Both the position numbers and the translations under genes were made by a program. DNA of 64,000 nucleotides from positions 42,733 through 106,732 of the forward strand of contig JBHHVD010000001.1 of assembly GCA_046754105.1 (NCBI GenBank), written 5' to 3'. Under the pieces are notes generated by a model. It saw only the letters and a program-made list of their open reading frames with translations, did not search any database and was not told the DNA's origin. Origin of the DNA: Candidatus Krumholzibacteriia bacterium. Lineage in GTDB: Bacteria > Krumholzibacteriota > Krumholzibacteriia > WVZY01. Of the stretch, positions 3,717 through 63,542 are shown piece by piece (positions within the stretch are counted from its first letter, which is position 1; each line of letters starts with the position of its first letter).

Positions 3717-4817
3717 CTACGCGAGGATTTCCTTGACCGAGGACGTCACGGCGTCAACCATCTCGTCGGTTAACTCGGGATACATCGGCAGTGAGAGGAT
3801 TTCATCGGAGGCTTGTTCCGCCACCGGAAAGTCGCCGCGCTCGAGTCCGAGGTGTTTGTAGGCCTCCTGAAGGTGGAGCGGCAACGGGTAGTGAATCCCG
3901 CACGCGATGTGCCGCACTTCCAGTTGCGTCAACAGTTTTTCCCTCTCCGGGGTCCGAACCACGTACAAATGGTAGACGTGACGGCAGTCCGGCGCTTCCC
4001 GTACCGGGCGGACCGGACCCTCGGCAAACGCTTCGTCGTACCGCTTCGCGCGGCTCCGCCGCAACTCGGTCCATTCGTCGAGGTGCCGCAGCTTGACGTC
4101 GAGGATTGCCGCCTGCAACGTGTCGAGACGATAGTTGAACCCTTCGCTGCGGTGGTTGTACTTGCCGTCGCGGCCGTGGTCGATGAGCATTCTCACGCGC
4201 GCCGCGAGCGTCTCGTCATCGGTTACCACCATACCGGCGTCACCGTAGGCCCCAAGATTCTTGCCCGGATAGAAGCTGTAGCACGAAACCTTGCCGTGGA
4301 TCCCCCGGCGGCTTCCCTTGAATTCCGCGCCGTGTGCCTGGGCCGCGTCCGAGACAATCGTGATTCCGTGCCGGTCGGCAACGGCGTGCAGCGCCTCCAT
4401 GTCCGCGCTCTGCCCGTAGAGATGAACGGGAATAATGGCCCGGGTGCGCGGCGTGATCGCCTCCTCCACTTTTTGCGGATCGATGTTCAGCGTGTCCGGC
4501 AGGACGTCGACCAGCACCGGCGCAGCCCCACTGTGACTAATGGCGGCTGTTGTCGCGATAAACGTGTTGCAGGCCGTAATCACCTCGTCTCCGCGCCCGA
4601 TGCCGAGCGCCTCCAGCGCTACGTGCAGCGCGGTCGTGCCGCTGCTCGTCCCTACCCCGAAGCCCGCTCCCACGTAGTGCGCGAAAGCGCTCTCGAACTC
4701 CTGGAGTTTCTCGCCGCCAACGAACCGCGTCGTTTCGAGGATCCTGCCTATCGCGGGGTCAATCTCGCCCCGGATGCTCTCGTACTGTGCCTTCAAGTCG
4801 ACAAAGGGAATCTTCAT
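3717..4817 (-). CDS. DegT/DnrJ/EryC1/StrS-family PLP-dependent sugar aminotransferase (ArnB-like)
   Basis: MKIPFVDLKAQYESIRGEID... has the typical N-terminus. The lysine-region SFYPGKNLGAYGDAG is present. 366 aa. Confidence 0.9.
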   Translation of the reverse strand: MKIPFVDLKAQYESIRGEIDPAIGRILETTRFVGGEKLQEFESAFAHYVGAGFGVGTSSGTTALHVALEALGIGRGDEVITACNTFIATTAAISHSGAAPVLVDVLPDTLNIDPQKVEEAITPRTRAIIPVHLYGQSADMEALHAVADRHGITIVSDAAQAHGAEFKGSRRGIHGKVSCYSFYPGKNLGAYGDAGMVVTDDETLAARVRMLIDHGRDGKYNHRSEGFNYRLDTLQAAILDVKLRHLDEWTELRRSRAKRYDEAFAEGPVRPVREAPDCRHVYHLYVVRTPEREKLLTQLEVRHIACGIHYPLPLHLQEAYKHLGLERGDFPVAEQASDEILSLPMYPELTDEMVDAVTSSVKEILA

Positions 4818-47270: not shown

Positions 47271-48074
47271 ATGATCTTTCGCAAGACAGATGATGCCCCT
47301 GCTGGCCAGTCCACACCGGAGGTGCCGCCTGCGCCGGGTCGTGCCGGTCGGGCTCGGACCCTCCTGGAGACGAGCGGCAACGCAATGGTGGTGTTGACCA
47401 TTTTGAGCGTAATCGTATCGACGGCCGTCGGGTTTAAATGGCTCTCCCCATTCTTGCACGTGGCCGCCGTGTTTCCCTCGTTCGGCGCAGCGATGAGAGC
47501 CCGCCGACACCGCCTGGCCCTGGCGTTGGCGGTGCGATGGGCGGTCGCTGTGTTCGCCACAACGGTCGTCGTCGGCGTTTTCGTGCCCGACCAGGTGGGC
47601 AGGAGCGTTGTCTTCGCGTACGCGAGCGTTACGGGTATTTCCCAATGGCTCAACACGCCCGGAGCCCCGCCGCCGGCGGACTACGCCTACCTCCTGTGGG
47701 GTATCGCCGTTTTTCTCGCCGGCGCGCTTCTCAGCGGGGGCGCGGTCGCGTTCGTCGTGGCTTCGGTCGCACTGGGAAATGCCGCTTTTGGAGTTCTGTT
47801 TCTTCTCAAGTACGCGTTCAACATCGTTCAAATCGCGCTCGTCGCCATCCCACCCTGGCAGGCGAGCATCCTGGGAGCCGCCCTGCTCATGCTCGTCCCG
47901 GCATCGTTGCCGTTCTACGAGCGGGTCGTACGGACCGGGCCGGAGACCTCGGACCGGAGGGTAGTGCGCGGATTGATGTACGCGGGCGCCGTCCTCGTGG
48001 TGGCCAGCCTGCTGCTGAGGGTCGCAGTGGCAGGTCCCTGGCACACCGTGCTCCGCGAATGGACGCTTTTCTAA
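47271..48074 (+). CDS. Integral membrane protein, function unknown
   Basis: Six or seven clear hydrophobic helices. Preferred over the overlapping minus-strand Arg/Gly-rich ORF 47121-48134. Confidence 0.45.
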   Translation: MIFRKTDDAPAGQSTPEVPPAPGRAGRARTLLETSGNAMVVLTILSVIVSTAVGFKWLSPFLHVAAVFPSFGAAMRARRHRLALALAVRWAVAVFATTVVVGVFVPDQVGRSVVFAYASVTGISQWLNTPGAPPPADYAYLLWGIAVFLAGALLSGGAVAFVVASVALGNAAFGVLFLLKYAFNIVQIALVAIPPWQASILGAALLMLVPASLPFYERVVRTGPETSDRRVVRGLMYAGAVLVVASLLLRVAVAGPWHTVLREWTLF

Positions 48075-48484
48075 TCCGGCCGTCTCCACACGGTGATCGA
48101 TGCGCGACTGTCGTGGTTCGACTGCGCCCGCCACGGCAAGAGCACCTACAACATACCGGCCTCACGACCGCCCCCCTACCATATATGGCGTACCGCGATC
48201 TGCGCCGTCGGATTGCCGGTCTCATAACCTGTTATTAATGAATTTATTGCCGGGGCCGGATTGCCGATGGTGCAATTGTCCTGATTCTTGCTAGTGTGCT
48301 GTCCCGGTGGGGCCGTGCCCCCTTGGCAGGTGGCGCGCCGATCGGCCCCTCCGGCAGGCCAGTTAGGGCTGGGGCGCCCGGAGTCATCGGCGACGGGGGC
48401 TGTACCTGCACAGGTCCGGCAGGGGAACGGCTTCCCGGACCGGACGCCGGGGATTTCCACCCGCCAAGGTGCCAGGAGCGACGT

Positions 48485-50026
48485 ATGCTGTACCTTACAA
48501 TCGTGCGCAGCCCGAGCAAGCAGGAGACCCTGTCGATCCCCGACAAGGAACTGCCCTTTACCATCGGACGCGACAAAGAGAACAAGCTCTTCATCAACAG
48601 TACCGCCGTCTCGCGGTTTCATGCCGTCCTGTTCGCCGAGCATGGGGAATATTTCGTCCAGGACATGGAGAGCACGAACGGCACCTTTCTCAACGGCAAG
48701 AAAGTCAAGAAATCCAGGGTCCACCCCGGCGACCGGGTCACGGTTGCCAACATCGATATCGTCATCGACGCGGCTCCCACGCCCCTGACGGATTTCAAGC
48801 TTCCGCTGGACCTGACCGTGTCCATCGACAATCCGATCGCCAGCGGTGCGACCATCACCATCAAGAATCCGGACCGCGAGCTCCTGCTCGACGACCTGGA
48901 GACCACGGCCGCCCACGACCTGTCGAAGTCGTATTCGGCTCTGCAGGTGCTCTACCGCGCGGACCGCGTGCTGCGGGATATAGAAGATTTCAAACAGCTG
49001 CTGGAGAACTTCATGGACCTCATCGCCGAAGTTATACCCTCGACCCGTGGGTACATATTCCTCCTCAACGCGGAGAACGGGCTGCCGGTACCGTACGTGC
49101 GCCGGGCACCGGGCTCGGCGGGCACCGACACCGAAATCGTTGTCAGCAAGACGATCTTGAAAACGGCAGTTGAGAAAAAAGAATCGTTGATCTCAAAAGA
49201 CGCGCTCGTCGACGAGCGGTTCGCGCATTCGAGGAGCGTGGCCGACTACAAGGTGAGAAGCGCTGTTTGCGCGCCCCTGCTAAACCGGGGAAAGGTCCTC
49301 GGCATTATCTATCTGGACTCGACGGACAAGTCGAATCTGTACTCGAAGGACGACCTTTCGCTGCTCTCAGCCATGGCACTCAAGGCCGGCATCGCTCTGG
49401 ACAACGCGCGGCTCTACGACGACATGCGCAACCTGTTCTTCAACACCGTCGAGACTCTGGTACGCGCCATCCAGGCGCGCGACCCCTACACAAGCGGCCA
49501 CTCCGCACGGGTCACGCGGTACTGCCTGTTGATTGCGGAAAGACTACAGCTGAGCACAAAGGAAAAGCAGCATCTCTATTTGACGTCGATGCTTCACGAC
49601 ATCGGCAAGATCGGCATACCTGACGACCTCCTCAACCGGCCGGGAAAGCTCAGCGAGGAAGAAATCGCGCGGGTACGGGACCACGTCAAGGTCGGTGCGA
49701 GTATGTTGAGAGCGTTGGGTGAGATGCACCCGATCGTTCCGCTCATCCTCCACCACCACGAGGCCTACGACGGATCGGGCTACCCGGACGGGTTAAAGGG
49801 CCAGAAGATACCCCTCATCTCGCGGATCGTCGCCGTCGCGGATACATGGGACGCGATGACGTCGGACCGCCCCTACCGCAAAGCAAGAACCATCGAGGAG
49901 GCGGTCGCGGAACTGAAGCGTTGCTCCGGAACGAACTTCGATCCCAAAGTGGTCAAGGTATTCCTGCAAACCCTCGAGGAACAATCCACCGCGGTGCTGG
50001 ACAAAGTCCCGCAACCGATCACTTGA
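48485..50026 (+). CDS. FHA-GAF-HD-GYP three-domain protein (putative c-di-GMP phosphodiesterase gated by phospho-Thr recognition)
   Basis: Start at internal Met MLYLTIV. FHA: FTIGRDKENKLFINSTAVSRFHAVL...STNGTFLNG. A central GAF domain follows. HD-GYP: LHDIGKIGIP...HHHEAYDGSGYPDGL. Confidence 0.85.
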   Translation: MLYLTIVRSPSKQETLSIPDKELPFTIGRDKENKLFINSTAVSRFHAVLFAEHGEYFVQDMESTNGTFLNGKKVKKSRVHPGDRVTVANIDIVIDAAPTPLTDFKLPLDLTVSIDNPIASGATITIKNPDRELLLDDLETTAAHDLSKSYSALQVLYRADRVLRDIEDFKQLLENFMDLIAEVIPSTRGYIFLLNAENGLPVPYVRRAPGSAGTDTEIVVSKTILKTAVEKKESLISKDALVDERFAHSRSVADYKVRSAVCAPLLNRGKVLGIIYLDSTDKSNLYSKDDLSLLSAMALKAGIALDNARLYDDMRNLFFNTVETLVRAIQARDPYTSGHSARVTRYCLLIAERLQLSTKEKQHLYLTSMLHDIGKIGIPDDLLNRPGKLSEEEIARVRDHVKVGASMLRALGEMHPIVPLILHHHEAYDGSGYPDGLKGQKIPLISRIVAVADTWDAMTSDRPYRKARTIEEAVAELKRCSGTNFDPKVVKVFLQTLEEQSTAVLDKVPQPIT

Positions 50027-51040: not shown

Positions 51041-52684
51041 CTAACGGTGCGCGGCTGGGACGACGACGCCCCCCGCAGTCTTGCCCAGCAAGTAGACGAC
51101 CACGTTTTCCAACAGCCAGGCGCCGTCTTGCGTCAGGTTGTCGGGGCTGACCTCCACGCCGTTGAAACCCCATAAAAGGTTGGTCGCCGTTCCCAGGACG
51201 ACGGTGGTGGTTTCCTCGACCAGGGGATGCAGGAGCATCAGCGGTGCCCGGGCGGCGAAAGGGGTCACGTTGTTGTTGCCGGAAAACGGGACGGAAAGCA
51301 TCTCGAGGTTGCGCGTGTAGACGCCCAGAAGCGACCCCGCGGTGGCGTTCAGCGGGTTCGGCAGATTATAAACGTCGTCGGCCGGGTCGACCACGTAGAG
51401 CCCCGACTGAAAGCTGGTCTGGGCACCACCGAAGCCAAGTGTCAGACCGATATTCTCGAAATAGGACGCCCCGCCGGCGCCTATACCGAGCACCATCGTG
51501 CCACTCTGCGCGATGGCATCGGTCTGGGGCTGGTATGCCCCCTGCCAGCCGGTGACGTCCTGGGCCGCGTCCCAGCCGATAACGACCACGTCGAACAACA
51601 CCGGGCTCACGGCGAAATCCTTTGGCAGCACGCGTACGGCCGCCTGTCCGGTGGTTTCCCAGTACGACTCGATCTCCTGTTCGAAGAGCGCCGCCGCTGC
51701 CGTATCTCCCTGACCCTGGACGTCGGTGATGTAGGCGATGTTCTGCACGCGCACGTAATCGGCCGACCAGGCGGTGCCCAGAGCGTTGTCCACCATAACC
51801 ACGTCAGAGGTGCCTTTCAGCGGCACCTGCACCTGGACGAGCAACTGGTCGGTCGCCGCGGTGACGATGCTGGCCGCGCGGCCGAAGATCCAGACCTGGG
51901 TGCCGGGGTAATCGAGATGCTCACCGAATACCGTCAGCTGAACCACCTGGCTCCTCATGGCCTCCGGTGCCGAGATTCCCGAGATCGCGGGAGCGGCATA
52001 GATGTGAACGTATTGCTCCGCGAACTCACTCTGCGTGTAGATGTTCTCGGCGGCCACCCGAAAATAGTAGTCGCCGCCCGGCAGGTCCCCTCCGTTTACC
52101 TGGGTAAACGTGTCCGTCAGGCCCGCTTCAAAACTGATAACGGAGAAATCGGGTACCGGACTTTCCTGAAACCGGTAGAAACCCGCGCCGGGCGTACGGT
52201 TCCACATCAAATTGAACGTGGTCCCTTCATCCACGACGGAGATATCCCGCCAGAACGCCGGTAACACGAACGATCTGGCCACGATCGAAACGCTGGTGTT
52301 CTGGTCTCTCAGCACGTCCACCGCCTCGTCGACGCCGAAAAAGGTCATGAGCCCGGCTTGAAACAACTCTACCGCCACACGCTTGCCGGCCTCCGCGATG
52401 ACGGTCAGCTGGACCTGGGCCGTGCCGGCGGGCGGGTTCAGCGCTACGCCCTTGGTCGCTTCCGGCTGGCTGCCCGTACCCGGGCGGTAGACCTTTACCA
52501 CGACGGAATCCGCCGTGGGCAGCGCACGTGCGAGGGCATCGTCCATAGGGGCCGCTGCGCTCCCACCGCCGGAGAGCCGCAGGACGATCACGCCGTGCTC
52601 CTCCACGTCGGGGCTTTCCAAGAGCGAACATCCCACCGCGGCGAGGCTGATTGCGACCGCTAGTACAAGAATCTTTTTGGACAT
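51041..52684 (-). CDS. Large surface lipoprotein with Fn3/IPT-like repeats, function unknown
   Basis: Lipobox MSKKILVLAVAISLAAVGCS. Ig-like segments (…YYFRVAAENIYTQSEF…). Confidence 0.6.
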   Translation of the reverse strand: MSKKILVLAVAISLAAVGCSLLESPDVEEHGVIVLRLSGGGSAAAPMDDALARALPTADSVVVKVYRPGTGSQPEATKGVALNPPAGTAQVQLTVIAEAGKRVAVELFQAGLMTFFGVDEAVDVLRDQNTSVSIVARSFVLPAFWRDISVVDEGTTFNLMWNRTPGAGFYRFQESPVPDFSVISFEAGLTDTFTQVNGGDLPGGDYYFRVAAENIYTQSEFAEQYVHIYAAPAISGISAPEAMRSQVVQLTVFGEHLDYPGTQVWIFGRAASIVTAATDQLLVQVQVPLKGTSDVVMVDNALGTAWSADYVRVQNIAYITDVQGQGDTAAAALFEQEIESYWETTGQAAVRVLPKDFAVSPVLFDVVVIGWDAAQDVTGWQGAYQPQTDAIAQSGTMVLGIGAGGASYFENIGLTLGFGGAQTSFQSGLYVVDPADDVYNLPNPLNATAGSLLGVYTRNLEMLSVPFSGNNNVTPFAARAPLMLLHPLVEETTTVVLGTATNLLWGFNGVEVSPDNLTQDGAWLLENVVVYLLGKTAGGVVVPAAHR

Positions 52685-52705: not shown

Positions 52706-53323
52706 TTACTGGACTTGTATGCCAACGGTCACGCGGCCGGTATCGGCGGGGGGCGCATTGTCGCCCCCACCAGAGGCCGCTCCCGCGATGGCGAGGAGTA
52801 CGACACCCATGGTCGCGTAGAACCACCATTTCTTGTAGACCGGTTTGCCCGCCGGCGCGGCGGCCTCGGTACTGGAATCGGCCGCACTGGTGATGCCGGT
52901 GTCCGGCGCGGTGCGGATTACCGCCGAGGCGTATTCCGATTTGGCCTGGTCGAACGTCGAGACGACGATCGATTTGAAAACACCCGGATCCGGGCCCTTG
53001 TAGGCACCGTCTTTTTTCAGGAGTTTCAGGAACTGAGCTTTTCCCTCGTCGCTCGCGCCCGTCATGATCAGCGACGCGGCCAGATACTCCCGCGCCTCCC
53101 GGACCTGTTCGTCTGCAACGTCCTCGCGCTCGAGGAACTGACGCAGCTCTGAGATGGCCTTTGTGTAGTCGCCGCGAAAATAGTACTTGTATTCAATTCG
53201 TTTCAGATCGGTGTCCGCCCCGGCGAGCGCTTCGCGCGGGAAAAGGCACGTCGCCTGGAAACCGAAGAAGCAGATCATGACGACCGTCGATACGACCTTG
53301 AGACCCCTGCTTTGCCTCAACAT
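52706..53323 (-). CDS. Bitopic membrane protein with a TPR-like helical region, function unknown
   Basis: N-terminal signal or anchor, and a C-terminal TM WWFYATMGVVLLAIAGAA. Lies 37 nt downstream of the kinase gene. Confidence 0.45.
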   Translation of the reverse strand: MLRQSRGLKVVSTVVMICFFGFQATCLFPREALAGADTDLKRIEYKYYFRGDYTKAISELRQFLEREDVADEQVREAREYLAASLIMTGASDEGKAQFLKLLKKDGAYKGPDPGVFKSIVVSTFDQAKSEYASAVIRTAPDTGITSAADSSTEAAAPAGKPVYKKWWFYATMGVVLLAIAGAASGGGDNAPPADTGRVTVGIQVQ

Positions 53324-53360: not shown

Positions 53361-55676
53361 TCATCCATCCAGCTCTTCATATGTCACCGTGGGTTCGCTT
53401 CCCACTTCGTACTCGATAACGGTATCCACGCCCTCTTTCACCGTGACGCCCACCTCGCGTGAGTCCTGTTCCCGAAACATGTTGCAGAGAATCGTATGGC
53501 GCCCCGCGGGTACGACGGCGCCGGTAAAGGGCGGTTGCTGCTTGAACTTGCGACCGTCGAACCACAACTCGCCGACACCGCCGAGGAAGTACACGGATAG
53601 CCTCCCGTAGGCGAGCTTCGGTGGCTCGAGCGTGGTCCTGGAACCCTTTCTCACCGTCACCACTTCTTCGAACGCCGTCACACCGTCGAGCAGTTCCGCA
53701 CGCACTTTGTGTTTCCCCGCGGGCAGCTGGATCGACAGGTACGTATCTTCACGGACCTTTAGGTCTCCATCGACGTAGATGTTGGCCAGTTTCGGCAGCA
53801 CCCAATCCAGCCGGCCCGAACCCGTGCCCGTCTTCCTCCGGGCCCGCTGCCCGGGTTTGACCTGGACGACCAGCGTCTGCTCGGAGCTGGCGATTCCATC
53901 GCTGCCGTGGACGGGAACGCGATGGGTTCCCGCCTGGTTCTTACGGGGAGTCCAGACGATACGATCGCCGTTCAACGCCATTCCGGCGGGCGCGTCTTCG
54001 AGCGAGAACTGCACCGGCCGGCCGGACGCGCTCGCCGCTTGCAGTTTTACGTTCAGTTTCTTGCCGACCTGCGCGGTTGCGCCGCCGATCGCCTTGAAGT
54101 CCAGGGAAACGGGTTCGTCCACCACCTCGACCAGCGTTTGCGCCTGTGCCACGTCGTTTCCGTCGTCGGCAAAGAACCTGAGCTCGTGTGTGCCGGCCTG
54201 CGAATAGTCGACCTTCCACGTAAATTCCCCCTCCGCGGACAGGTCTGCACCGTCGGGCAGGTTGTCGCTGTAGAGACGTACCTTATCGCCGTCCGCGTCG
54301 ACGACCTCGATCCGGAATTTGACGTGTTGCCCTTCGCTGACCGTCATGCGGGGGGGCGGGGACAGGACCGGTGCGGCGTTCGCGCTGCCGCTCGATCGAA
54401 TCGCCGTCCATCCCCACCAGCCGCCGAAAGCGGCGCTGGCCGCAACAAGGACGATGAGCGGGGCCGCCAACCGGCCGCGGCGCGAGCCGGCAGCGCGGCG
54501 GGGCGGTCGTCCCCGGGTTGGTTTCGCCTTCGCCCGGCCGCGTATCCGGGATTTCGAGTCCTCCCCGTCTGCCTTTTTGGATAGCCCGGCTTTGTCGAGG
54601 GCGACGGTCGAATTCTCGTCGGGATACTCTGCCATGAGCCTGGCGAGATGTTTCCGTGCGCGGTCGTTGGTCGGATCGAGGTAGAGGATCCGCTTGAACT
54701 CCTGTACCGCATCGGTGATGTGGGTCTTGCCCTTCTGCATGAAGTAGGTTCCCTGTGACAAACACCGGGCGACCATCTTGTCTTTGTAGGCCTTCTCGTA
54801 CGCCTCGGGGTCCTTCATGTACCGCTGCAGGCGACGGCGATCCCGTTTGATCTCGAACTTCTCCATCGCCTTTTCAACGTCGGTAATGATATCGACGATG
54901 CTCTCGTAACGCCGGGAGACGTCCTTCTCCAGCATCCTGGCGACGATGTTTTCGAAATCGGGCTGGATGAGAGGGTTCTTGTGGGTGAGTGATGGAACAT
55001 CGTGGGTCTGGATCTTCTCGAGCACTTCCGAATAGGATTTTCCCTCGAACGGGCGTTTCTGACAGAACAACTCGTATGCCACGACGCCCAGCGAAAAGAT
55101 GTCGCTCTGCGGCCCAACGTTGTCACCCGCCGCCTGTTCCGGTGACATGTAGGCGGGTGTTCCGAGCACTTTTCCGGGCTGGGTGACGACGGTCATCGCG
55201 TCGGATTTCTTGGCCAGCCCGAAGTCGGCAATCTTGATTCCGCCCTGCCGCGTGTAGATGATATTCGCGGGCTTGATGTCCCGGTGAACGATTTCCTTGT
55301 TGTGCGCAGCCTCCAGCCCGAGGCAAACATCCAGCAGGATCGAGACCGCGATGTCGAGGGGGATTCTCTCGTAGTCCTTGATGAGGTCGGCGATCGTCAT
55401 GCCCTCGTAGTACTCCATGACGATGTAGTAGCAGCCGCCCGACTCGCCGAAATCGACGACGTTGACGATGTTCTCGTGCTGGACCTTGGCGGCCGATCGG
55501 GCCTCGCGTTCGAAGCGGCTGATGAAGCTCTCGTCGCTCGCCAGGTAGGGAAACAGCACCTTGATGGCGACGGTTTTGCCGATGGACACCTTGCGGGCCT
55601 TGTAAACGGCCGCCATGCCGCCCACGGCGACCTGCTCCATCGAATCGTAACCGTCTATGCGGACTTCTATTGCCAT
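53361..55676 (-). CDS. Transmembrane eukaryotic-like Ser/Thr protein kinase with extracellular Ig-like and PEGA domains
   Basis: Start at internal Met MAIEVRIDGYD. Kinase motifs VAIKVL, HRDIKPANII, DFGLAK, GTPAYMSPE. One TM segment. Two Ig-like repeats, then two PEGA-like repeats (…YVDGDLKVREDTYLSIQLPAGKHKVRAEL…). Confidence 0.9.
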   Translation of the reverse strand: MAIEVRIDGYDSMEQVAVGGMAAVYKARKVSIGKTVAIKVLFPYLASDESFISRFEREARSAAKVQHENIVNVVDFGESGGCYYIVMEYYEGMTIADLIKDYERIPLDIAVSILLDVCLGLEAAHNKEIVHRDIKPANIIYTRQGGIKIADFGLAKKSDAMTVVTQPGKVLGTPAYMSPEQAAGDNVGPQSDIFSLGVVAYELFCQKRPFEGKSYSEVLEKIQTHDVPSLTHKNPLIQPDFENIVARMLEKDVSRRYESIVDIITDVEKAMEKFEIKRDRRRLQRYMKDPEAYEKAYKDKMVARCLSQGTYFMQKGKTHITDAVQEFKRILYLDPTNDRARKHLARLMAEYPDENSTVALDKAGLSKKADGEDSKSRIRGRAKAKPTRGRPPRRAAGSRRGRLAAPLIVLVAASAAFGGWWGWTAIRSSGSANAAPVLSPPPRMTVSEGQHVKFRIEVVDADGDKVRLYSDNLPDGADLSAEGEFTWKVDYSQAGTHELRFFADDGNDVAQAQTLVEVVDEPVSLDFKAIGGATAQVGKKLNVKLQAASASGRPVQFSLEDAPAGMALNGDRIVWTPRKNQAGTHRVPVHGSDGIASSEQTLVVQVKPGQRARRKTGTGSGRLDWVLPKLANIYVDGDLKVREDTYLSIQLPAGKHKVRAELLDGVTAFEEVVTVRKGSRTTLEPPKLAYGRLSVYFLGGVGELWFDGRKFKQQPPFTGAVVPAGRHTILCNMFREQDSREVGVTVKEGVDTVIEYEVGSEPTVTYEELDG

Positions 55677-55985
55677 TTGCAAGATTCTCCGGCCGCCGTA
55701 TCCCGCCCATCGACGGAACGCAGCGTAACGCACTATTACGCAACAGGTTAAAAACCTGCATCCCATGTCCCGCGGGGCTAGTTGCAATAATTACGCCACC
55801 GGCGCCGAGGGGCCACCCCCCCCCAATCACGGCCACCGCGCTCGTCCGCGGCACACGCGGGACGGGGGAGCGCGCCGGCGGCGGCGGGGTACGGAGTTTT
55901 TGCTTGAGCGGCCGGAACGGGGGTTGTATAACTTGCCGAGCCCGAAGCCCGGCAAGAAACCACTCGGGGGGAAAAGGAGTCATCC

Positions 55986-56615
55986 TTGAGACGGATCGTC
56001 GTGATCGTAGTCGTCGTGCTGTCCGTGTGCTGCCACGCACCCGCATTCTCGCAGGTTTTTTACACGTTTGCGAACGCCCCCGTCGTTGCACCGGACAACG
56101 TGGTCACCGGCGCGTACGCGGCGGTCGGTGAGAACGACCTCTTCCGGCTCGGTGGTTTCGGGCGCCTGGGGCTTGTGAAATACTTCGACGTCGGCGTGGA
56201 GGTCCAGCTGGACCTTGTCGACGGAGACGCGCGTGGAGGCGCCGGGGTGGACGTCAAGCTGGCCGCCTTTCCAGAGACGGCCGCGATACCGTTCGACTTG
56301 TCGCTCAACGCCGGCGTGGGGTTTGTCGGTGACGGCGACTTTACACTGATCCGTGTGCCCATTGGCGGTATCATCAGCAGCCCGTTCAAACTGGATTCCG
56401 GAAAAGTGCTCGTCCCCTACGTTGGCGCGTATCTGCTCGTCGACAATATCGATGTCGAAGGCGGCCCGCTCCAACCGGACATCTCGGATACCGACGTGGA
56501 TGCCGAGCTCAGGGGAGGCGTGCGCTACGAGCTGGAGGGTCGATTGGACCTCTTCGGCACGCTGCACATAGGCCGCGGCGCGCTCTTTGCCGTGGGTGTA
56601 ACCCTCAAACTCTAG
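55986..56615 (+). CDS. Small outer-membrane beta-barrel-like protein, function unknown
   Basis: Signal peptide MRRIVVIVVVVLSVCCHAPAFSQ. Eight to ten amphipathic beta-strand segments (…VGVEVQLDLVDG…, …LSLNAGVGFVG…). Confidence 0.5.
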   Translation: MRRIVVIVVVVLSVCCHAPAFSQVFYTFANAPVVAPDNVVTGAYAAVGENDLFRLGGFGRLGLVKYFDVGVEVQLDLVDGDARGGAGVDVKLAAFPETAAIPFDLSLNAGVGFVGDGDFTLIRVPIGGIISSPFKLDSGKVLVPYVGAYLLVDNIDVEGGPLQPDISDTDVDAELRGGVRYELEGRLDLFGTLHIGRGALFAVGVTLKL

Positions 56616-56655
56616 GGGGGATGTGGCGCCCGGTGCGGCGGTGGCCACGCGCGGG

Positions 56656-57411
56656 TCAGCGGGCGCTGTCGATCTTCACGATCTGGACGGTGACGTTGTC
56701 CTTGCCGCCCTTCTTGTTCGCCAGTTCTACCAGTTCCTTGCACGCTTTCCGGGGGGAATTCGCCTTGAGGATCGCCTCAACTTCGTCGTCGGTTACCATC
56801 GTAGTCAGGCCATCGGAGCACAGAAGAAAAACGTCACCGTCGGCGGTCTTGTAAGGAGACGACGGAAAATCCGTCGCGAGTTCCTCTTGCGTCCCCAGTG
56901 AGCGCGTGATGACGTTGCGCTTGGGATGATTTTGCGCGTCTTCGTCGGACAGAATGCCGGACCGGACCATTTCGCCGACCAGCGAGTGATCTTCCGTCAC
57001 CTGCTTCAGCTTGCCGCCCCTGAGCACGTACGCTCTCGAATCACCGACATGCGCGAAGAAAGCGTCGCCCTGCTTGAGCACCATCGTCGTACATGTCGTA
57101 CCCATTCCGAATAGCTCGACGTCGGCGATGGATTTCCGATGGATTACGTCGTTTGCCTTGATGAACGACTGGCGCAACGCCTCGATGGCGTCGTCCGATT
57201 CGCTTGCGTAGTACCAGGAGATAATCGTATCGACCGCCAATTTGCTGGCGATCTCGCCGCCGCGGTGGCCTCCCATACCGTCCGCCACCACGTAGAGGGA
57301 ACCTTTTTCCGCCTGCGCCGTCTCGCCGTTGGGCTCACATTTCCCCACGGCGTCTTCGTTGTTTTGCCGAACCTTGCCGTCATCCGTAAGTTCAAAAGAA
57401 TCGAGCTTCAT
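56656..57411 (-). CDS. PP2C-family Ser/Thr protein phosphatase
   Basis: Start at internal Met MKLDSFELTDDGKVRQNNEDA. LYVVADGMGGHRGGEIAS and the downstream Asp motifs are present. Confidence 0.9.
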   Translation of the reverse strand: MKLDSFELTDDGKVRQNNEDAVGKCEPNGETAQAEKGSLYVVADGMGGHRGGEIASKLAVDTIISWYYASESDDAIEALRQSFIKANDVIHRKSIADVELFGMGTTCTTMVLKQGDAFFAHVGDSRAYVLRGGKLKQVTEDHSLVGEMVRSGILSDEDAQNHPKRNVITRSLGTQEELATDFPSSPYKTADGDVFLLCSDGLTTMVTDDEVEAILKANSPRKACKELVELANKKGGKDNVTVQIVKIDSAR

Positions 57412-57698
57412 TCGTCCCTTCCTGGACCCGCAACGTGTCTTGACCTTATCTTCGACTCGAAACCGAGTCAAGGGCAATGATTCGCGCCGTCCCGCAGCGC
57501 GCTGCCGCTTAAAAAATGCCAAAAACTTCTTCCTGGTGGAACAATCTGGCATATTTTACGCAGAAGATCCACGGAGTTGGGGTCCTGACAACGGCGTCCG
57601 GCCGGTCGTACTGTCAACCCTGTCGATGGGAAAATTCGACCCGTTTTCGCGTAAGCCCAGAGAATGTCTTCAATTGGAGACTCCACCGGAGGATATTG

Positions 57699-59009
57699 AT
57701 GGACAAGAAGAACTCTCAGAGCACGGAAAAGCATCTTGCAAAATATCAGGAGCTTGTAGGAAAGCGCAAGACATTGCAAGCGCGCCTGGAGAGAATCAAT
57801 GCGGAAAAGGGATCGGTCAAGGAAGCGATCTACGAAAAGGTCCGGGGCGAGTACGAGAAGCAGTTGGGCGAACTCGAGAACGAGATCCAACCCGTGAAAG
57901 ATGAGGTAGACAAGACCCGCCGTATGATCAAGGACCAGCTGGCCAGGATCGACGAGGAAGTCGCCGCACTCGAAGATCAGCTGCAGGAATTCGATCTTCG
58001 CCACCGCGTGGGCGAGTTTGACGAGAATGAACTATCGAAGCTGCGGGATCCGGTCCACCGGCAATCGGACGAGCTATCCGAGAGAAGAAAGCACCTGGCG
58101 CAGACTCACCAGCAGTTGGACGACCCGGACGCGGCCCCGCCGGCCGAAACGACGCGGACGGCCGCCGGCGAGGCACCCACTCCCGACGCCGCGGAACCGG
58201 TTTCGAAAGTGCCGCCCCCAGGTCCCGTCACCAGGCCGAGGCCACCGGCCCCGGTCACAGCGAAGGGTAAGCCACCGGCACCGGATACCGGCGAGCCGGC
58301 AGCCCCCACCGTTCCCCGGAAAGCACCGGCCCCATCGCCACAGCCCACGGCCGCGGCCGCTCCGCCACAACCGCCGGAAGCACCCGAAGCACCCACCGTT
58401 GACGCGCCCGAGATACCCGCTGCCTCACCACCACCCGCCGAGCCGGACGACGGGCTCGTACTGTCCGGAGCCAAGCCCAGCAAGCGCGTGAACAAGATGC
58501 AGGGGCTCGTGGACACGAGCGAGTGGTCGAAGGAGTTTCAGGAAGAGACCCACAAAGGCGGCAAGGGCAGGCGCCACACCGATACGCCGGACGCGCCCAC
58601 GGCCGCCACGGACGACGATCCGCTCGCGGCCCTCTCCGATTCGTCGGCCCCGGCCGGTCCCGCGGCGACCACCCGGGGAAAGAAGCGGGGGGGCGTCGGT
58701 ACGCGGGAGAAGCCCAGGGGCTTTCCCGTCCTCATTATCACCAAGGGTCCCGGTGCGGGCAAGAAGCTGCCGCTAGTGCCGATGACAATGACCATCGGCC
58801 GCGAGCACGACAACAACATCGAGCTGAAAGACGAGGAAGTTTCCCGGTACCACGCGAGAATCTCATACGAAAGCGGCGAATACGTAATAAAGGACCTCGA
58901 CAGTTCCTCGGGGACTTGGGTCAATGAGGAGAGGATCGCGGAGGCAGCACTCAACCAGGGAGACAGAATCCAGGTCGGCGCCACCGAACTGGTCATTGAC
59001 TTTGAGTAG
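57699..59009 (+). CDS. FHA-domain protein: N-terminal coiled coil, Pro/Ala-rich linker, C-terminal FHA
   Basis: Start at internal Met MDKKNSQ. FHA: MTIGREHDNNIELKDEEVSRYHARISYESGEYVIKDLDSSSGTWVNEERI. About 170 residues of PAPxP low complexity. Confidence 0.85.
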   Translation: MDKKNSQSTEKHLAKYQELVGKRKTLQARLERINAEKGSVKEAIYEKVRGEYEKQLGELENEIQPVKDEVDKTRRMIKDQLARIDEEVAALEDQLQEFDLRHRVGEFDENELSKLRDPVHRQSDELSERRKHLAQTHQQLDDPDAAPPAETTRTAAGEAPTPDAAEPVSKVPPPGPVTRPRPPAPVTAKGKPPAPDTGEPAAPTVPRKAPAPSPQPTAAAAPPQPPEAPEAPTVDAPEIPAASPPPAEPDDGLVLSGAKPSKRVNKMQGLVDTSEWSKEFQEETHKGGKGRRHTDTPDAPTAATDDDPLAALSDSSAPAGPAATTRGKKRGGVGTREKPRGFPVLIITKGPGAGKKLPLVPMTMTIGREHDNNIELKDEEVSRYHARISYESGEYVIKDLDSSSGTWVNEERIAEAALNQGDRIQVGATELVIDFE

Positions 59010-59026: not shown

Positions 59027-59890
59027 CTAGACCCGCTCGACGGAATTGGCGGATACCCACCCCGAGAGCCCTCCCGGCAGCTGAATCCTCACCCAACCAC
59101 GACGCGCCTCTCCCACCGTTACCATTGTTCCTTCGTGAATCTTGAACCGCAGGGTCGCGTCCTCCGTCGGGCTGCCGAATACAGGTATCTCGCGGGCCAA
59201 CACTACTGCGTCAGGGCGGCGCATTTCCTCCTGCAGCTTGAGATACGAAGAAAAGCCCGTCGTCGCCACCAGGATCACCAGTAACGCGATGGCCGCGAGC
59301 AGTTCCTGGGTTAGTGTCAGACCGAACAATCTTCCCGGCGAAATGACGGACAGCCTGTGATGTACGATCGTGACAAACCGCGTCTCGCGAAAAATGAAAA
59401 CCACGGCCAGAGTGCACAACAGCAGGTAGGCCAGCGATGCAAAAGACAACATCTCGGCGGTTCGCAGGTTGTCGTGAAACCAGATCATTCGCTGCGCCAG
59501 GCGACTCTTGTTCTCGACGAACTGCTTGTCTTTGAGTTGGGTCCTGACCAGAGTCAGGTTTTCTCTCACGTCCGGATCGCGCGGCGACAGCCGCGCCGAC
59601 CTCTCGTAGAACAGCACGGCCCTGCCCAGATCGTTGGTCTTGTAATAAGCGTTACCCAGGTTGTAATAGAGCGTTTCATCCACGACGCCGCCGTCCATTA
59701 CTCCGGTGTACGCTTCTATCGCGCCGGCATAGTCCCCCGACTCGTACAGCGCGTTCGCCCTCGCGAAGAGCGCCCGCGCCGATTCCGCCGCCACCGGCTC
59801 CTCGGCGCGCGCACGCCGTGGTCCCCCTCCTGCCGCATACGCGATCAAGAGTAGCGCGGTGACAAGCCCGAAGCGGCGCATGATCCTCAC
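59027..59890 (-). CDS. batE: BatE-like protein (TPR + TM + C-terminal SH3-like domain)
   Basis: Signal peptide, TPR motifs (YYNLGNAYYKTNDLGRAVLFYERSARLSP), one TM segment, and the C-terminal ...GTMVTVGEARRGWVRIQLPGGLSGWV. Last gene of the bat cluster. Confidence 0.6.
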   Translation of the reverse strand: MRIMRRFGLVTALLLIAYAAGGGPRRARAEEPVAAESARALFARANALYESGDYAGAIEAYTGVMDGGVVDETLYYNLGNAYYKTNDLGRAVLFYERSARLSPRDPDVRENLTLVRTQLKDKQFVENKSRLAQRMIWFHDNLRTAEMLSFASLAYLLLCTLAVVFIFRETRFVTIVHHRLSVISPGRLFGLTLTQELLAAIALLVILVATTGFSSYLKLQEEMRRPDAVVLAREIPVFGSPTEDATLRFKIHEGTMVTVGEARRGWVRIQLPGGLSGWVSANSVERV

Positions 59891-61710
59891 GAAAGGTACC
59901 TCTTCTCTAGGTGTTTCATTATGGCCGCCGCTTCGCGAACCATCTCCGCAACTCCGGCGGCTCCGTCCGACGGCGAGTACTGGACGCTATCACATGCTCT
60001 GAGTACCGCACCGAACCGCTCCCGCTCCTTCGCGTCCGTTCCACACTCCAGGAGAAAGCGGTCGAGGTCCGGGAAAGTGAGTCCCGATGCCGCCAGATTC
60101 ATTTTGTCGGCAACGTATTCGCGGAGCGCACCCGAGATCATGCCGCACGCTTCTTCCGTGCGGCCTTTGCCGTCCAATTCGGCTGCCTTCTTGAGTTTTC
60201 TGGAGGCTTCCCGTGCCGCGCGGCTGGACCGGGCCAGCGAGACGTCGTCCCGCCATCGCCTGCGCCTCCGTTCGAAGGCGAGAGAAACGAGAACGGCCAG
60301 CAGCGGGAAGACATGAAGAGCCGCAAAGAGGCCACTGCGGTAGAAACCCCTGGCCGCTGACGACAACGTCGCGGGAACCGGGTGAATAAAGTTGATGTCC
60401 TTGCCGAGTACCTCGATGTCCTCGCCAGAGCCGGCAAAAATAACCTGCCGCCCCCCTTCCTGCTGCTCGGCCGGTTTAATCTCCATCGATATCGACGCTG
60501 ACCGGATACTCTTGTACTCCTTTGCGATGGGGTCGAAGTAGGACAATCTCACGGGCGGAATGACGGCCTGCCCCTCGTTCCGGGGAACGAGAACGAAGTT
60601 CGACTGTTTTCTCCCTGCGACGACGTAGTCTCGTTTGAAAAGGTCGGCGCTGGAACCGGACTCGTAGATCTTGAACCCGTCGATCTGCGGGAGAACGGGA
60701 GCCGCCATGGTCTTGAAATTTCCCTCGCCGCTGACCTCGAGTGTCACGTTGACCGGCTCGCCGGCCCGAATCACCTGTTTGTCGGCACGGAGCGATATCT
60801 CGAGGTTGCGCCCCACCAGACCCGAGAAGTCGGCCGGCTTGCCCTCGACGGGCAACGGCAGCACGACGATCGGTATTTCGTCCGTCGAAAGCCGCCTGGC
60901 GTCGCCGAAACCGAAGGACGAGAACGGTCTCCGGAAGAAATCGTCGAAGGAACGCGCCGCAAAATCGTCGACCACGACGTCCACCCGCGCCGGTCCTATC
61001 GTGTACGTGCCCGGCACGGTTGGAAAGAACCCGCGCTTGATTTCGTTGATCAGATACTTCCGGCCGCCGATCATCTTGTAGTAGTTTTTCTGCGGGGGCA
61101 AGTCTTCCGCCCAGAAACCTTCGGCCGACGGTGCCGAGTAATAGGGACTCTTCGACAAATCGAGGCGGCCATCGGTGTAAAACCCCAGCGTCCAGGTGAC
61201 CTGCTGGCTTACGTAGACGGTGTCCCGGTCCACCCGTGCTCTGATGAAAATATGTGCGTCATCGCTGACCTGCTCCGGTTGTCCACCCGGCGTATCGGGC
61301 GGTGGCAGTTGGCTCGAAGATGCCACGACTTCGATGCTTACCGGATCGGCGGTATAGACCTTACTACCGACCTTGAAGCGAATGGGGGCGATCGTGTAAT
61401 GACCTTCCTTACGGGGCACAACCACGTACGTAAACTTGAGCGAAGAGCTTCTCTGGCCGTTGGAAATGCTGAAGCTCTGCGACGTGCCTGCCTGGTAGAC
61501 CGAGAACTCGTCGAGCACGGGAAGCTCCGGCTGGGACGAGCGGCGAAACTTGCCCTGAACCGCGACGACCAGCGTGGCCTCGCTGCCAACGGGAACGACG
61601 GAAGGTTCGAGCACCGCGGTGATAGTCACGTCTTCGGCCACCGCCGGACCGGCCCCCAGCACCGCGGCCATGATGAAAACCACCACCAGCCATCTTGTCA
61701 AAGGTCTCAC
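59887..61710 (-). CDS. batD: BatD-like oxygen-tolerance protein
   Basis: ~600-aa protein with a signal peptide and a C-proximal TM segment. Positioned between batB/C and batE with 4-nt overlaps. Confidence 0.65.
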   Translation of the reverse strand: MRPLTRWLVVVFIMAAVLGAGPAVAEDVTITAVLEPSVVPVGSEATLVVAVQGKFRRSSQPELPVLDEFSVYQAGTSQSFSISNGQRSSSLKFTYVVVPRKEGHYTIAPIRFKVGSKVYTADPVSIEVVASSSQLPPPDTPGGQPEQVSDDAHIFIRARVDRDTVYVSQQVTWTLGFYTDGRLDLSKSPYYSAPSAEGFWAEDLPPQKNYYKMIGGRKYLINEIKRGFFPTVPGTYTIGPARVDVVVDDFAARSFDDFFRRPFSSFGFGDARRLSTDEIPIVVLPLPVEGKPADFSGLVGRNLEISLRADKQVIRAGEPVNVTLEVSGEGNFKTMAAPVLPQIDGFKIYESGSSADLFKRDYVVAGRKQSNFVLVPRNEGQAVIPPVRLSYFDPIAKEYKSIRSASISMEIKPAEQQEGGRQVIFAGSGEDIEVLGKDINFIHPVPATLSSAARGFYRSGLFAALHVFPLLAVLVSLAFERRRRRWRDDVSLARSSRAAREASRKLKKAAELDGKGRTEEACGMISGALREYVADKMNLAASGLTFPDLDRFLLECGTDAKERERFGAVLRACDSVQYSPSDGAAGVAEMVREAAAIMKHLEKRYLS

Positions 61711-63542
61711 CAGTCCTTTCCTGAACGGCTGACGCGCTTGAACGCAGCCTTGCGTTTTGCCTTCTGCAGTTCCTTCTCCTGCTCTTCGAGCAGCTTCAGG
61801 ATCCGAAGCGCGTCTTCCCGGGTGAGCTTGATGCTCCGGGCTTGTTGTTGCTGCGGGTCGGTCTGGGCTGAATCGGATTCAGACGGGGACGGCGCTTGCG
61901 ACGAGTCAGGCTGTTCTTCATTCGCGTCCGGTTGCTGCTGTTGGTCCTGGTCGGAACCCTGTTGCCCCTCCTGCGACTCCCGGTCCTTGTCGCGGTCGCC
62001 AGGCTTCTGGTCGCTCTGGTCCTGGTTCTGGTCCTGCGATTTGTTCTGTTGATCCTGTTTGTTTTGCTGCTGCTGTTGCTGGTTCTGTTGCTGCTGCTTC
62101 AGGGCCAGCTCGAGATTGTGTCGTGCGTCCCGGTCGTCCGGCAGGTACTGCAGCGTCCGGAGGTAGGATTCAATCGCCTCGCCGAGCTTGCCCATGCGCG
62201 CGAGCGTATTGCCGCGGTTGTAGAATACGCGCCCGGCGCTGAGGCTATCCTCCGTAAAACTTCTGTTGTATCGATTCAAGGCGTCTTCGTACTTGCCCAT
62301 CATGTGCAGCGCGTTGCCCTGGTTATAGAGCACACCCTCCGCTCTCTTTGGCAGTGTCGTCGTATCGCCCATAGCCTCTCGATACAGAAGCAGCGCTTTC
62401 TGGTACTCACCGGCATCGTAGTATTCGTTCCCCGCCTTGACCCGGCCACGGTCGATGCTTCCCGCACACGCCGCGCCGGGAAGGAACGCCACGAGCACAA
62501 TGGCACCCATGATCCCCGTGTGCAGGGGTCTGCGGCGGTTCCTCATCGATCCGCGCCGGGAGACGACCGTCTCCAACCCCAGCAACAGGAACGCCGCGGC
62601 AAGAAACCAGGTAAAGCGATCACTTTTGCGCTCCACGAATTCGCCCTCTATCGTTGTCTTCTGCATACCCGAAATCTCGCGATAAAGAACCTTCAGTTCG
62701 AGTCCCTGCCGGGTGGCCGGCAGGAATTTTCCACCGCTGGCGTCGGATACGAGGCGGAGCGTCTTTTCATCGAGCCTCGTGAGTACCGTTTCTCCCGTCT
62801 TGTCCTTCTTGTACCCCGCGACGGATCCGTCCGTTCCCCTCAGGGGTATCAACTCGCCAGCCGGATTGCCGATGCCAATCGTGTATATACGAATACTTTT
62901 GTCGTTCGCGCGGCGGGCGGATGCGACCGGGTCGCCGGCATGGCCCTCTCCATCCGTTACGAGGATGACCACCCGATCGCTCTTCGCCTTCTCCGCAAAC
63001 AGCGCTATGCTCGTATCGATCGCCTTGTCCAGAGCCGTGCCCGGTTGCGAGATAATATCGACGTCCGCCGTCTGCACAAACATTAGCGCGGCGTCGTAGT
63101 CGACGGTAAGCGGGCAAAGGACGAAGGCCTCTCCCGCGAACGCGACCAGGCCTACACGATCGCCTTTGAGTCCCCGGATCAGATCCACGATTTCCTGCTT
63201 GGCGCGCTCCAGGCGGTTGGGTTTCATGTCCTCCGCCATCATGCTGAGCGAAGTATCGAGCGCGATAACGAGGTCGATTCCTTCTCGCTCCAGCTTGACC
63301 AACTGCTTGCCAAACTGCGGGCGAGCCAGCGCGAGCACCAGCAGTGCAAAGCCCGTGATCTTCAGGATGCTCTTGAGGAGTGTTTTTCGCCAGCTCGCCC
63401 CCGGGGCCAGCGAATCCCTCAGATGCGGACCGGCAAAACGCAGGAGTTCCTTGCGCCGCCGCCGCGCCCCATAGATAAGAAGCCACGCGAGAAATGGCAC
63501 CGCGTACAAGGCACTCAACCATTCTGGATCTGCAAATTCCAT
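61707..63542 (-). CDS. batB: BatB-BatC fusion: membrane-anchored vWA-domain protein with TPR repeats and a Gln/Asp/Ser-rich low-complexity tail
   Basis: Two N-terminal TM segments. vWA with the MIDAS motif DLVIALDTSLSM...TDG. TPR repeats follow. The C-terminus is QQQQNQQQQQQNKQDQQNKSQDQNQDQSDQ.... Confidence 0.75.
   Translation of the reverse strand: MEFADPEWLSALYAVPFLAWLLIYGARRRRKELLRFAGPHLRDSLAPGASWRKTLLKSILKITGFALLVLALARPQFGKQLVKLEREGIDLVIALDTSLSMMAEDMKPNRLERAKQEIVDLIRGLKGDRVGLVAFAGEAFVLCPLTVDYDAALMFVQTADVDIISQPGTALDKAIDTSIALFAEKAKSDRVVILVTDGEGHAGDPVASARRANDKSIRIYTIGIGNPAGELIPLRGTDGSVAGYKKDKTGETVLTRLDEKTLRLVSDASGGKFLPATRQGLELKVLYREISGMQKTTIEGEFVERKSDRFTWFLAAAFLLLGLETVVSRRGSMRNRRRPLHTGIMGAIVLVAFLPGAACAGSIDRGRVKAGNEYYDAGEYQKALLLYREAMGDTTTLPKRAEGVLYNQGNALHMMGKYEDALNRYNRSFTEDSLSAGRVFYNRGNTLARMGKLGEAIESYLRTLQYLPDDRDARHNLELALKQQQQNQQQQQQNKQDQQNKSQDQNQDQSDQKPGDRDKDRESQEGQQGSDQDQQQQPDANEEQPDSSQAPSPSESDSAQTDPQQQQARSIKLTREDALRILKLLEEQEKELQKAKRKAAFKRVSRSGKDW

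Follow-up and report, generated by a model that had tools for sequence, protein, structure and literature searches.

A conserved FHA-GAF-HD-GYP gene of Candidatus Krumholzibacteriia, its probable link to Ser/Thr kinase signalling, and a conserved box in its upstream gap

The stretch of DNA analysed here (the window, 64 kb) comes from a metagenome-assembled genome (MAG) of Candidatus Krumholzibacteriia, and the subject of this report is one of its plus-strand genes, an FHA-GAF-HD-GYP gene, together with the gap of 410 nucleotides (nt) that precedes it (48075-48484), which extends from the stop codon of a gene for a 267-residue protein to the ATG at 48485. NCBI lists a protein of a Candidatus Krumholzibacteriia MAG that is 100% identical to the gene product, and genes for a Ser/Thr kinase and a PP2C phosphatase lie further downstream (Table 1). 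In an earlier reading of the same DNA (the original prediction), the gap had been described as a 410-bp untranslated leader carrying three ATTGCCG(G/A) copies, which could be a regulator-binding array or a structured RNA. Comparison with orthologous loci points to a different element, a short box immediately 3' of the third ATTGCCG copy, which had not been flagged before and which is the sole conserved block in the upstream region of this gene.

The domain order that had been predicted is borne out by Pfam, which places FHA at residues 26-87, GAF at residues 169-305 and HD_5/HD-GYP at residues 324-489, with E-values of 3e-17 for FHA and 3e-43 for HD_5. The GAF region is matched by Pfam GAF, GAF_2 and GAF_3, and it also aligns with the GAF domain of PmGH from Persephonella marina (PDB code: 4MCW), with which residues 160-500 align end to end in a PDB search (E = 1e-47). 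Further PDB matches are the cyclic GMP-AMP (cGAMP) phosphodiesterase V-cGAP3 (5Z7C; E = 8e-44) and PA4781 (4R8Z; E = 3e-28), and the closest sequence matches include phosphodiesterases of both cyclic di-GMP (c-di-GMP) and cGAMP. The AlphaFold model, whose predicted local distance difference test (pLDDT) score is 74 on average, shows a confident FHA sandwich at residues 1-95 (pLDDT ~90), a disordered linker at residues 98-145 (pLDDT < 50), and a GAF domain joined to HD-GYP by a long helix, and Foldseek returns 4MCW first for the GAF-HD-GYP part. As in PmGH, a GAF domain, a long connecting helix and an HD-GYP domain follow one another, and the window protein keeps seven of the eight metal ligands of PmGH, its D183/K225 catalytic pair and its GYP motif. 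In contrast to PmGH, it adds an N-terminal FHA domain on the disordered linker.

The residues of the HD-GYP domain that are constant in 27 sequences comprise D333, H339, H371, D372, K375, H400, H423-H425, E426, D453 and G432-Y433-P434. Among them, H339, H371-D372, H400, H423-H424 and D453 are the metal ligands of the HD superfamily that align to the ligands of PmGH, and D333/K375 form the equally invariant catalytic pair. The position of PmGH E185 is taken by an invariant tyrosine, Y335 (Y-T-S), and the carboxylate E/D-T-G signature of the trinuclear subfamily is absent. Y335 at this position places the family in the Y/F subfamily of Bellini et al., and a binuclear rather than a trinuclear metal site is predicted for it; the Y/F subfamily was predicted to be without the third metal (Bellini et al. 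2014, PMC4159591). Taken together, the alignments suggest that the gene product is a PmGH-type GAF-HD-GYP phosphodiesterase that would hydrolyse a cyclic dinucleotide.

The hallmark of FHA domains, made up of G-R, S-x-x-H and N-G residues on an 11-strand β-sandwich, is preserved as well. G28, R29, S43, R44, H46 and S63-T67 are constant in the 27 sequences, and the signature G28-R29, S43-R44-x-H46 and T64-N65-G66 is invariant among them. Foldseek leads from this domain to GarA, OdhI, Rv1747 and DgcB, with template-modelling scores up to 0.9. The domain thus appears to be of the canonical type that binds phosphothreonine (pThr), and it stands at the extreme N-terminus, followed by a flexible linker of ~50 residues. 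DgcB, an FHA-GGDEF protein of Bdellovibrio bacteriovorus, likewise has an N-terminal consensus FHA domain fused to a c-di-GMP-metabolising domain, and its FHA fold matches that of the window protein, 6HC0 and 6HC1 being among the Foldseek matches. Binding of a phosphopeptide to the FHA domain of DgcB activates the enzyme (Meek et al. 2019, PMC6733907), and occupancy of the FHA domain by a phosphopeptide is the same working principle as that proposed for the window protein. The two proteins differ in their output, which would be degradation by HD-GYP here and is synthesis by GGDEF in DgcB, and in the GAF domain that is interposed only here. They also differ in the source of the ligand: DgcB presents its own phosphorylated N-terminal tail of ~30 residues before the FHA domain, whereas the FHA domain of the window protein starts at about residue 2, where the first β-strand of the AlphaFold model begins, and all homologues begin with ML(H/Y)L without a tail. 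It follows from this start that a DgcB-like cis-acting tail does not exist in the window protein. Tlr0485 of Thermosynechococcus has a GAF-HD-GYP core too, in which GAF gates the phosphodiesterase, but has no FHA domain; its activity depends on cyclic AMP binding to GAF, as cited in a passage of Galperin and Chou (bioRxiv 10.1101/2021.11.05.467447).

The gene is real, and the enzyme that it is predicted to encode is conserved phylum-wide. Among the best 120 of at least 120 homologous clusters (55-83% identity), nearly all have FHA, GAF and HD-GYP, a few N-terminally truncated ones lack only FHA, and every named source is a member of Krumholzibacteria or Latescibacteria. More remote relatives with an FHA domain are encoded in Gemmatales/Planctomycetota (L015, L022 and L065), with 34-36% identity and matches beginning at residue 27 or 34; since these matches run from FHA through the end of HD-GYP, the architecture is not restricted to Krumholzibacteria and Latescibacteria, while the upstream box described below is absent at these three loci. 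The text of the HD-GYP census by Galperin and Chou (bioRxiv 10.1101/2021.11.05.467447) contains 0 occurrences of FHA, so that FHA-GAF-HD-GYP is not among the architectures described there. An FHA-GGDEF-EAL hybrid is annotated in Microcystis, and a literature search found DgcB, a cyclase, as the sole characterised c-di-GMP enzyme under FHA control. The window protein is known from pipeline annotation but has never been the subject of a study, and it would unite a GAF-HD-GYP core of the PmGH type with FHA gating of the DgcB type.

The upstream region was compared over 14 loci, namely the window and 13 orthologous loci (L001 and L161-L172), whose proteins range from 77% down to 55% identity. Twelve of the 13 came from exact-protein look-ups; scans of contigs and metagenomes with generic HD-GYP peptides yielded a single true orthologue, L001 (= L081), among matches that were for the most part unrelated GAF-HD-GYP loci. 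The start codon at 48485 is well established because 26 homologues of ~514 residues begin with ML(H/Y)L at the same alignment column and because AGGAG stands 6 nt upstream; a GGAG or AGGAG of similar kind is present in most of the orthologues' upstream regions. An N-terminal extension over 48296-48484, in frame from a GTG at 48296, was ruled out as coding by its flat GC content at the three codon positions (0.76/0.75/0.71, compared with 0.59/0.38/0.80 in the gene), and chance accounts for its 63 codons without a stop at such composition (P = 0.37). For this extension, the earlier view that the GC-rich open reading frames (ORFs) of the gap look spurious is confirmed.

The upstream regions of the orthologues cannot be aligned except for the box, which all 14 loci possess; 12 of its columns are invariant, and its flanks are at background level. 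Its 3' end lies 50-63 nt from the ATG in 11 of the 14 loci, 36 nt in L172, 101 nt in L171 and 193 nt in the window. The exact box occurs once in the window, and among the 168 loci compared it is found only upstream of orthologues of this gene. Near-matches with up to three mismatches number 14 in the window against 5.3 expected; according to the ORF map, almost all of them lie within coding regions, one falls in the 3' tail of a gene, and the one at 571, apparently intergenic, falls where a minus-strand gene encodes its N-terminal part. A scan of viral contigs gave at least 120 matches, which chance would explain, given 15 specified bases and the collection searched, and a literature search for the box sequence returned mouse primer sequences only. 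A coding role for the box, either in a small ORF or in an N-terminal extension of the protein, was rejected: only 5 of 14 loci keep it in frame with the ATG, no more than chance, and TTGACC variants make stops in two frames. In four loci, AATGGGT is seen 0-37 nt upstream of the box (L001 at 3917-3923, L162, L166 and L168) and reads AATGGGTTAC in L162 and L166; the distance varies, and the motif is absent from the window.

On account of its position, its strand-specific linkage to the gene and its sharp boundaries, we lean somewhat towards a box that acts at the DNA level as a dedicated promoter or operator, and the probable role of such a site would be that of a core promoter or operator for the FHA-GAF-HD-GYP gene. 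As the box probably marks the promoter or operator, the 5' untranslated region would be ~190 nt at most; the 410-bp leader is therefore unlikely to be transcribed over its whole length. Several points speak against the promoter or operator reading. The evidence for it consists of position and conservation; further copies may stand at other genes, since the scan covered only ~160 kb of Krumholzibacteria DNA; and it conforms to neither of two familiar promoter types. Its TTGNCC resembles a -35 element of sigma-70, but a TAnnnT-like -10 element is found at 16-19 nt in none of the 14 loci, and the fit to sigma-54, considered below, is partial. A sigma-70 consensus scan of the gap found no promoter, including the position just upstream of 48485 for which an internal promoter had been raised in the original prediction, and the terminator-like matches in the gap are weak and on the wrong strand.

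The main rival to the DNA-level reading is a box that works in the mRNA, as an anti-Shine-Dalgarno sequence or as a site for a small RNA or an RNA-binding protein, with transcription starting further upstream. The pyrimidine-rich composition of the box (CCUGAUUCUU), its predicted pairing with the Shine-Dalgarno region in L165, L168, L170 and L171, and the want of recognisable sigma-70 or sigma-54 features would be in keeping with such a role. However, the energy of the duplex with the initiation region, evaluated over the 14 loci, has a mean rank of 0.49 among neighbouring 18-mers and of 0.38 among shuffled boxes, and an anti-Shine-Dalgarno role was rejected on the ground that neighbouring 18-mers reach energies just as good. 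Covariation is impossible for an invariant box, and in L172, where the box ends so close to the ATG, the sequence upstream of it is GC-rich and has no promoter-like stretch. A role in the mRNA is accordingly regarded as unlikely, albeit the best surviving of the alternatives.

Much less probable is the array of regulator-binding sites that the three ATTGCCG(G/A) copies and the AT-rich island would form to control the gene. The coordinates given for these features were correct: ATTGCCGG is found at 48212-48219 and 48246-48253, ATTGCCGA at 48260-48267 and the AT-rich island CCTGTTATTAATGAATTTATTG at 48228-48249, with the GC content falling to 0.43 over 48230-48289. Three copies within 56 nt have a nominal expectation of 0.004 in a stretch of 410 nt, a figure that applies to a pattern picked after looking, and each copy holds TTGCCG, which differs at one position from the TTGNCC half of the adjoining conserved box. 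Nevertheless, ATTGCCGR occurs in the window 8 times against 5.5 expected, a count reached in 18 of 100 shuffles, and the window holds four different 7-mers of which three copies fall within 60 nt. A second-order Markov simulation gives 0.67 such triples per 64 kb and at least one in 43% of simulated 64-kb windows. The spacings are irregular (34 and 14 nt), a 10-nt direct repeat, CGGATTGCCG at 48209 and 48257, has two copies only, and neither the ATTGCCG repeats nor the direct repeat nor the AT-rich island is found in any of the 13 orthologous upstream regions. The triple repeat does not exceed what chance would give. What had been proposed for the gap thus holds in spirit, as a DNA element that is the conserved box, while the repeat array does not; the gap shows no conserved structure, and the motif does not recur in the window above chance. 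A 15-nt exact repeat, GCCGGATTGCCGATG, is shared by 48255-48269, which includes the third ATTGCCG copy, and 62860-62874, inside a BatA/VWA-TPR gene (61707-63542); with an E-value of 0.02 in blastn-short, it is probably a chance match.

Sigma-54 promoters have the consensus TGGCACG-N4-TTGCW, with GG at -24, GC at -12 and 10 nt between them. That the box is such a promoter, used with an enhancer-binding protein, is very unlikely: it is compact (~17 nt) and ends with CTTGC(T/A), like the -12 element TTGCW, but the GG of the -24 element is missing, the aligned position having a G and then a base that varies between A, T and C, the alternative alignment is spaced one base too long, and no enhancer-binding protein gene is seen in the neighbourhood. 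The structured RNA leader or riboswitch, for instance a c-di-GMP-sensing one, is hardly credible, because, long and GC-rich as the gap is, with a long-range inverted repeat (48316-48333 with 48457-48474) beside the Shine-Dalgarno sequence, and sensible as feedback control of a c-di-GMP enzyme would be, a permissive Rfam search of 47900-48700 (E ≤ 10) gave a best E of 2.3 for an unrelated 26-nt leader model and no c-di-GMP-I/II match, no Rfam family reached its gathering score in the 13 orthologous loci, the folding energy shows no excess stability over dinucleotide shuffles (z = +1.28 for 48075-48500 and +0.75 for 48296-48500), and the GC-rich block is peculiar to this lineage, the orthologues having ~50-60 nt between box and ATG and a sequence 3' of the box that cannot be aligned and has no conserved structure. 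The spacer has no counterpart in the relatives and no other copy in the window; for the leader as a whole, chance matches of 11-15 nt are all that is found elsewhere in the window, and the relatives share only the conserved box.

The left half of the gap has a different history. An NrdR operator consists of two 16-bp palindromic boxes that precede an nrd gene at a spacing of ~31-32 nt, and Rodionov and Gelfand are said to have placed such operators, in 2005, upstream of ribonucleotide reductase genes. A palindromic ATAT-rich box with an CCATATATGG core and a second box 31 nt away are seen in the window as well: box 2, TACCATATATGGCG at 48177-48190, has three mismatches to TACAATATATTGTG, and box 1, TACAACATACCGGC at 48146-48159, is decayed, with five mismatches as read from the sequence. 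Unlike the known operators, this pair adjoins no nrd gene, and no ribonucleotide reductase gene is found anywhere in the 64-kb window. Most of the orthologous loci carry a divergent class II ribonucleotide reductase gene next to the HD-GYP gene on its upstream side, and NrdR-like pairs 30-32 nt apart stand between the reductase gene and the conserved box in L162 (2797-2841), L164 (1065-1109), L165 (2791-2834) and L171 (2608-2653). The distance from NrdR box 2 to the conserved box, 99 nt in the window, is 82-103 nt in L162, L164 and L165, and the arrangement is collinear. The reductase is missing from this position in the window, L161 and L166-L168, and a homologue of the 267-residue protein gene lies beyond the reductase in L001 and L162. 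In L167, a decayed AACCATATATAAAT is kept. The pair in the window is most likely a relic of the ancestral divergent reductase promoter region and not a working operator, and, given the pair, its spacing and its collinear position, the left half of the gap is most simply read as the scar of that region. The relic reading leans, to its disadvantage, on one good and one decayed box.

The kinase and the phosphatase were correctly predicted to lie close by, and with the second FHA protein they form a Ser/Thr signalling cluster that spans 53361-59009. A divergent PP2C/FHA gene pair is also found 2-4 kb from the HD-GYP orthologues in L169 and L170, and this synteny would support a functional link between the HD-GYP gene and Ser/Thr signalling. 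The protein probably couples protein-kinase signalling to the breakdown of a cyclic dinucleotide, with gating by pThr as the proposed means. The explanation that we consider likely as a whole combines an FHA-gated phosphodiesterase of the PmGH type with a composite gap. In this explanation, the neighbouring Ser/Thr kinase and PP2C phosphatase would set the phosphorylation state either of a partner or of the linker within the protein itself; the FHA domain would read this state, the dimer or the GAF arrangement would shift, and with it the hydrolysis of the substrate, c-di-GMP or a dinucleotide related to it, would change, while the GAF domain would receive a second, small-molecule input. The gap would be composed of five parts: a remnant of the divergent intergenic region that the gene once had in common with a class II ribonucleotide reductase gene, since lost in this lineage (48075-48200); a non-conserved AT-rich/ATTGCCG stretch (48200-48275); the sole conserved cis element, which a dedicated regulator or an alternative sigma factor would read (48276-48293); a lineage-specific GC-rich spacer that would have lengthened the 5' untranslated region to ~190 nt (48296-48470); and the Shine-Dalgarno sequence with the ATG.

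Three observations stand against the protein part of this explanation. The substrate is uncertain, as HD-GYP proteins of the Y/F subfamily vary in theirs (c-di-GMP, pGpG and 3'3'-cGAMP); the inter-domain geometry of the AlphaFold model is unreliable, its predicted template modelling score being 0.46; and the adjacency of the kinase is seen in this window, most orthologous loci being covered by 3-kb flanks only. A more far-reaching version is put forward only tentatively, in which the box would be the site of a dedicated regulator or alternative sigma factor that is conserved across Krumholzibacteriota and Latescibacterota and perhaps controlled by a Ser/Thr kinase, and the protein would be the first case of pThr-gated cyclic-dinucleotide degradation, integrating FHA and GAF inputs.

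While FHA control of c-di-GMP synthesis is known from the one enzyme DgcB, an FHA-gated HD-GYP protein, if true, would mean that Ser/Thr-kinase signalling can drive the breakdown of the messenger too. The family is a single, highly conserved gene with a constant neighbourhood (the lipoproteins, and PP2C/FHA at two orthologues, joined by a kinase in the window) across an uncultured phylum, and this combination makes it a clean system for tests with recombinant proteins. The invariant box offers a handle on a regulator, perhaps on a regulon, in organisms whose promoters are uncharted. The locus also illustrates how a long GC-rich gap with a local repeat can mimic a leader, when it is most simply read as a deletion scar and a lineage-specific spacer.

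Table 1. Features of the FHA-GAF-HD-GYP locus and its surroundings (window coordinates).
Feature	Coordinates	Strand	Remarks
Predicted membrane protein, 267 residues	47271..48074	+	Stop codon forms the left edge of the gap
NrdR-box-like pair, 31 nt apart	48146..48190	.	Box 2 well kept, box 1 decayed
Three ATTGCCG(G/A) copies and AT-rich island	48212..48267	+	Lineage-specific, not conserved
Conserved cis element TTGTCCTGATTCTTGCTA	48276..48293	+	Consensus TTGNCCTGATTCTTGC followed by WW; 16-18 nt
GC-rich spacer, ~74% GC	48296..48470	+	~175 nt, from box to ribosome-binding site; lineage-specific, non-coding
Shine-Dalgarno sequence AGGAG	48474..48478	+	6 nt ahead of the ATG; read from the sequence
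FHA-GAF-HD-GYP gene	48485..50026	+	513 residues; Pfam, invariant residues, PDB matches, AlphaFold, Foldseek
FHA domain	48560-48745		
Flexible linker	~48776-48919		
GAF domain	48989-49399		
HD-GYP domain	49454-49951		
Predicted lipoprotein, 287 residues	50019..50882	-	LLGSC lipobox; convergent, 3' end overlaps the HD-GYP gene by 8 nt
Lipoprotein, 547 residues	51041-52684	-	Signal AAVGCS; syntenic in most orthologous loci
Gene for 205 residues	52706-53323	-	Syntenic in most orthologous loci
Ser/Thr kinase with extracellular Ig-like domains	53361-55787	-	3.3 kb downstream; Pfam
Gene for 222 residues	55980-56648	-	Between kinase and PP2C
PP2C phosphatase	56656-57552	-	6.6 kb downstream; Pfam
FHA/coiled-coil protein, CdvA-like	57516-59009	+	Second FHA protein, 7.5 kb downstream; Pfam

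Several of the neighbouring genes in Table 1 belong to no described family. The 267-residue membrane protein matches no Pfam or NCBIfam family, and its homologues were found by tblastn in L001, L161, L162 and L166-L168 (39-49% identity); no Pfam or NCBIfam family was matched, either, by the genes at 51041-52684, 52706-53323 and 55980-56648. The convergent 287-residue lipoprotein matches no Pfam family, a weak match to an NADase-type glycan-binding domain falling below the cut-off, and its counterpart occurs in 13 of 13 orthologous loci as a minus-strand gene for 267-309 residues whose 3' end overlaps that of the HD-GYP gene by about 8-26 nt. The overlap between the two genes, 50019-50026 in the window, is thus kept across the phylum and leaves no room for an intergenic terminator. 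The predicted starts of the divergent PP2C and FHA/CdvA-like genes overlap by 37 nt, and at least one of these starts is probably miscalled. Directly past the Ser/Thr cluster, at 59027-63542 on the minus strand, lies an operon resembling the Bat-type aerotolerance operons (TPR/SH3, BatD and BatA-VWA-TPR).

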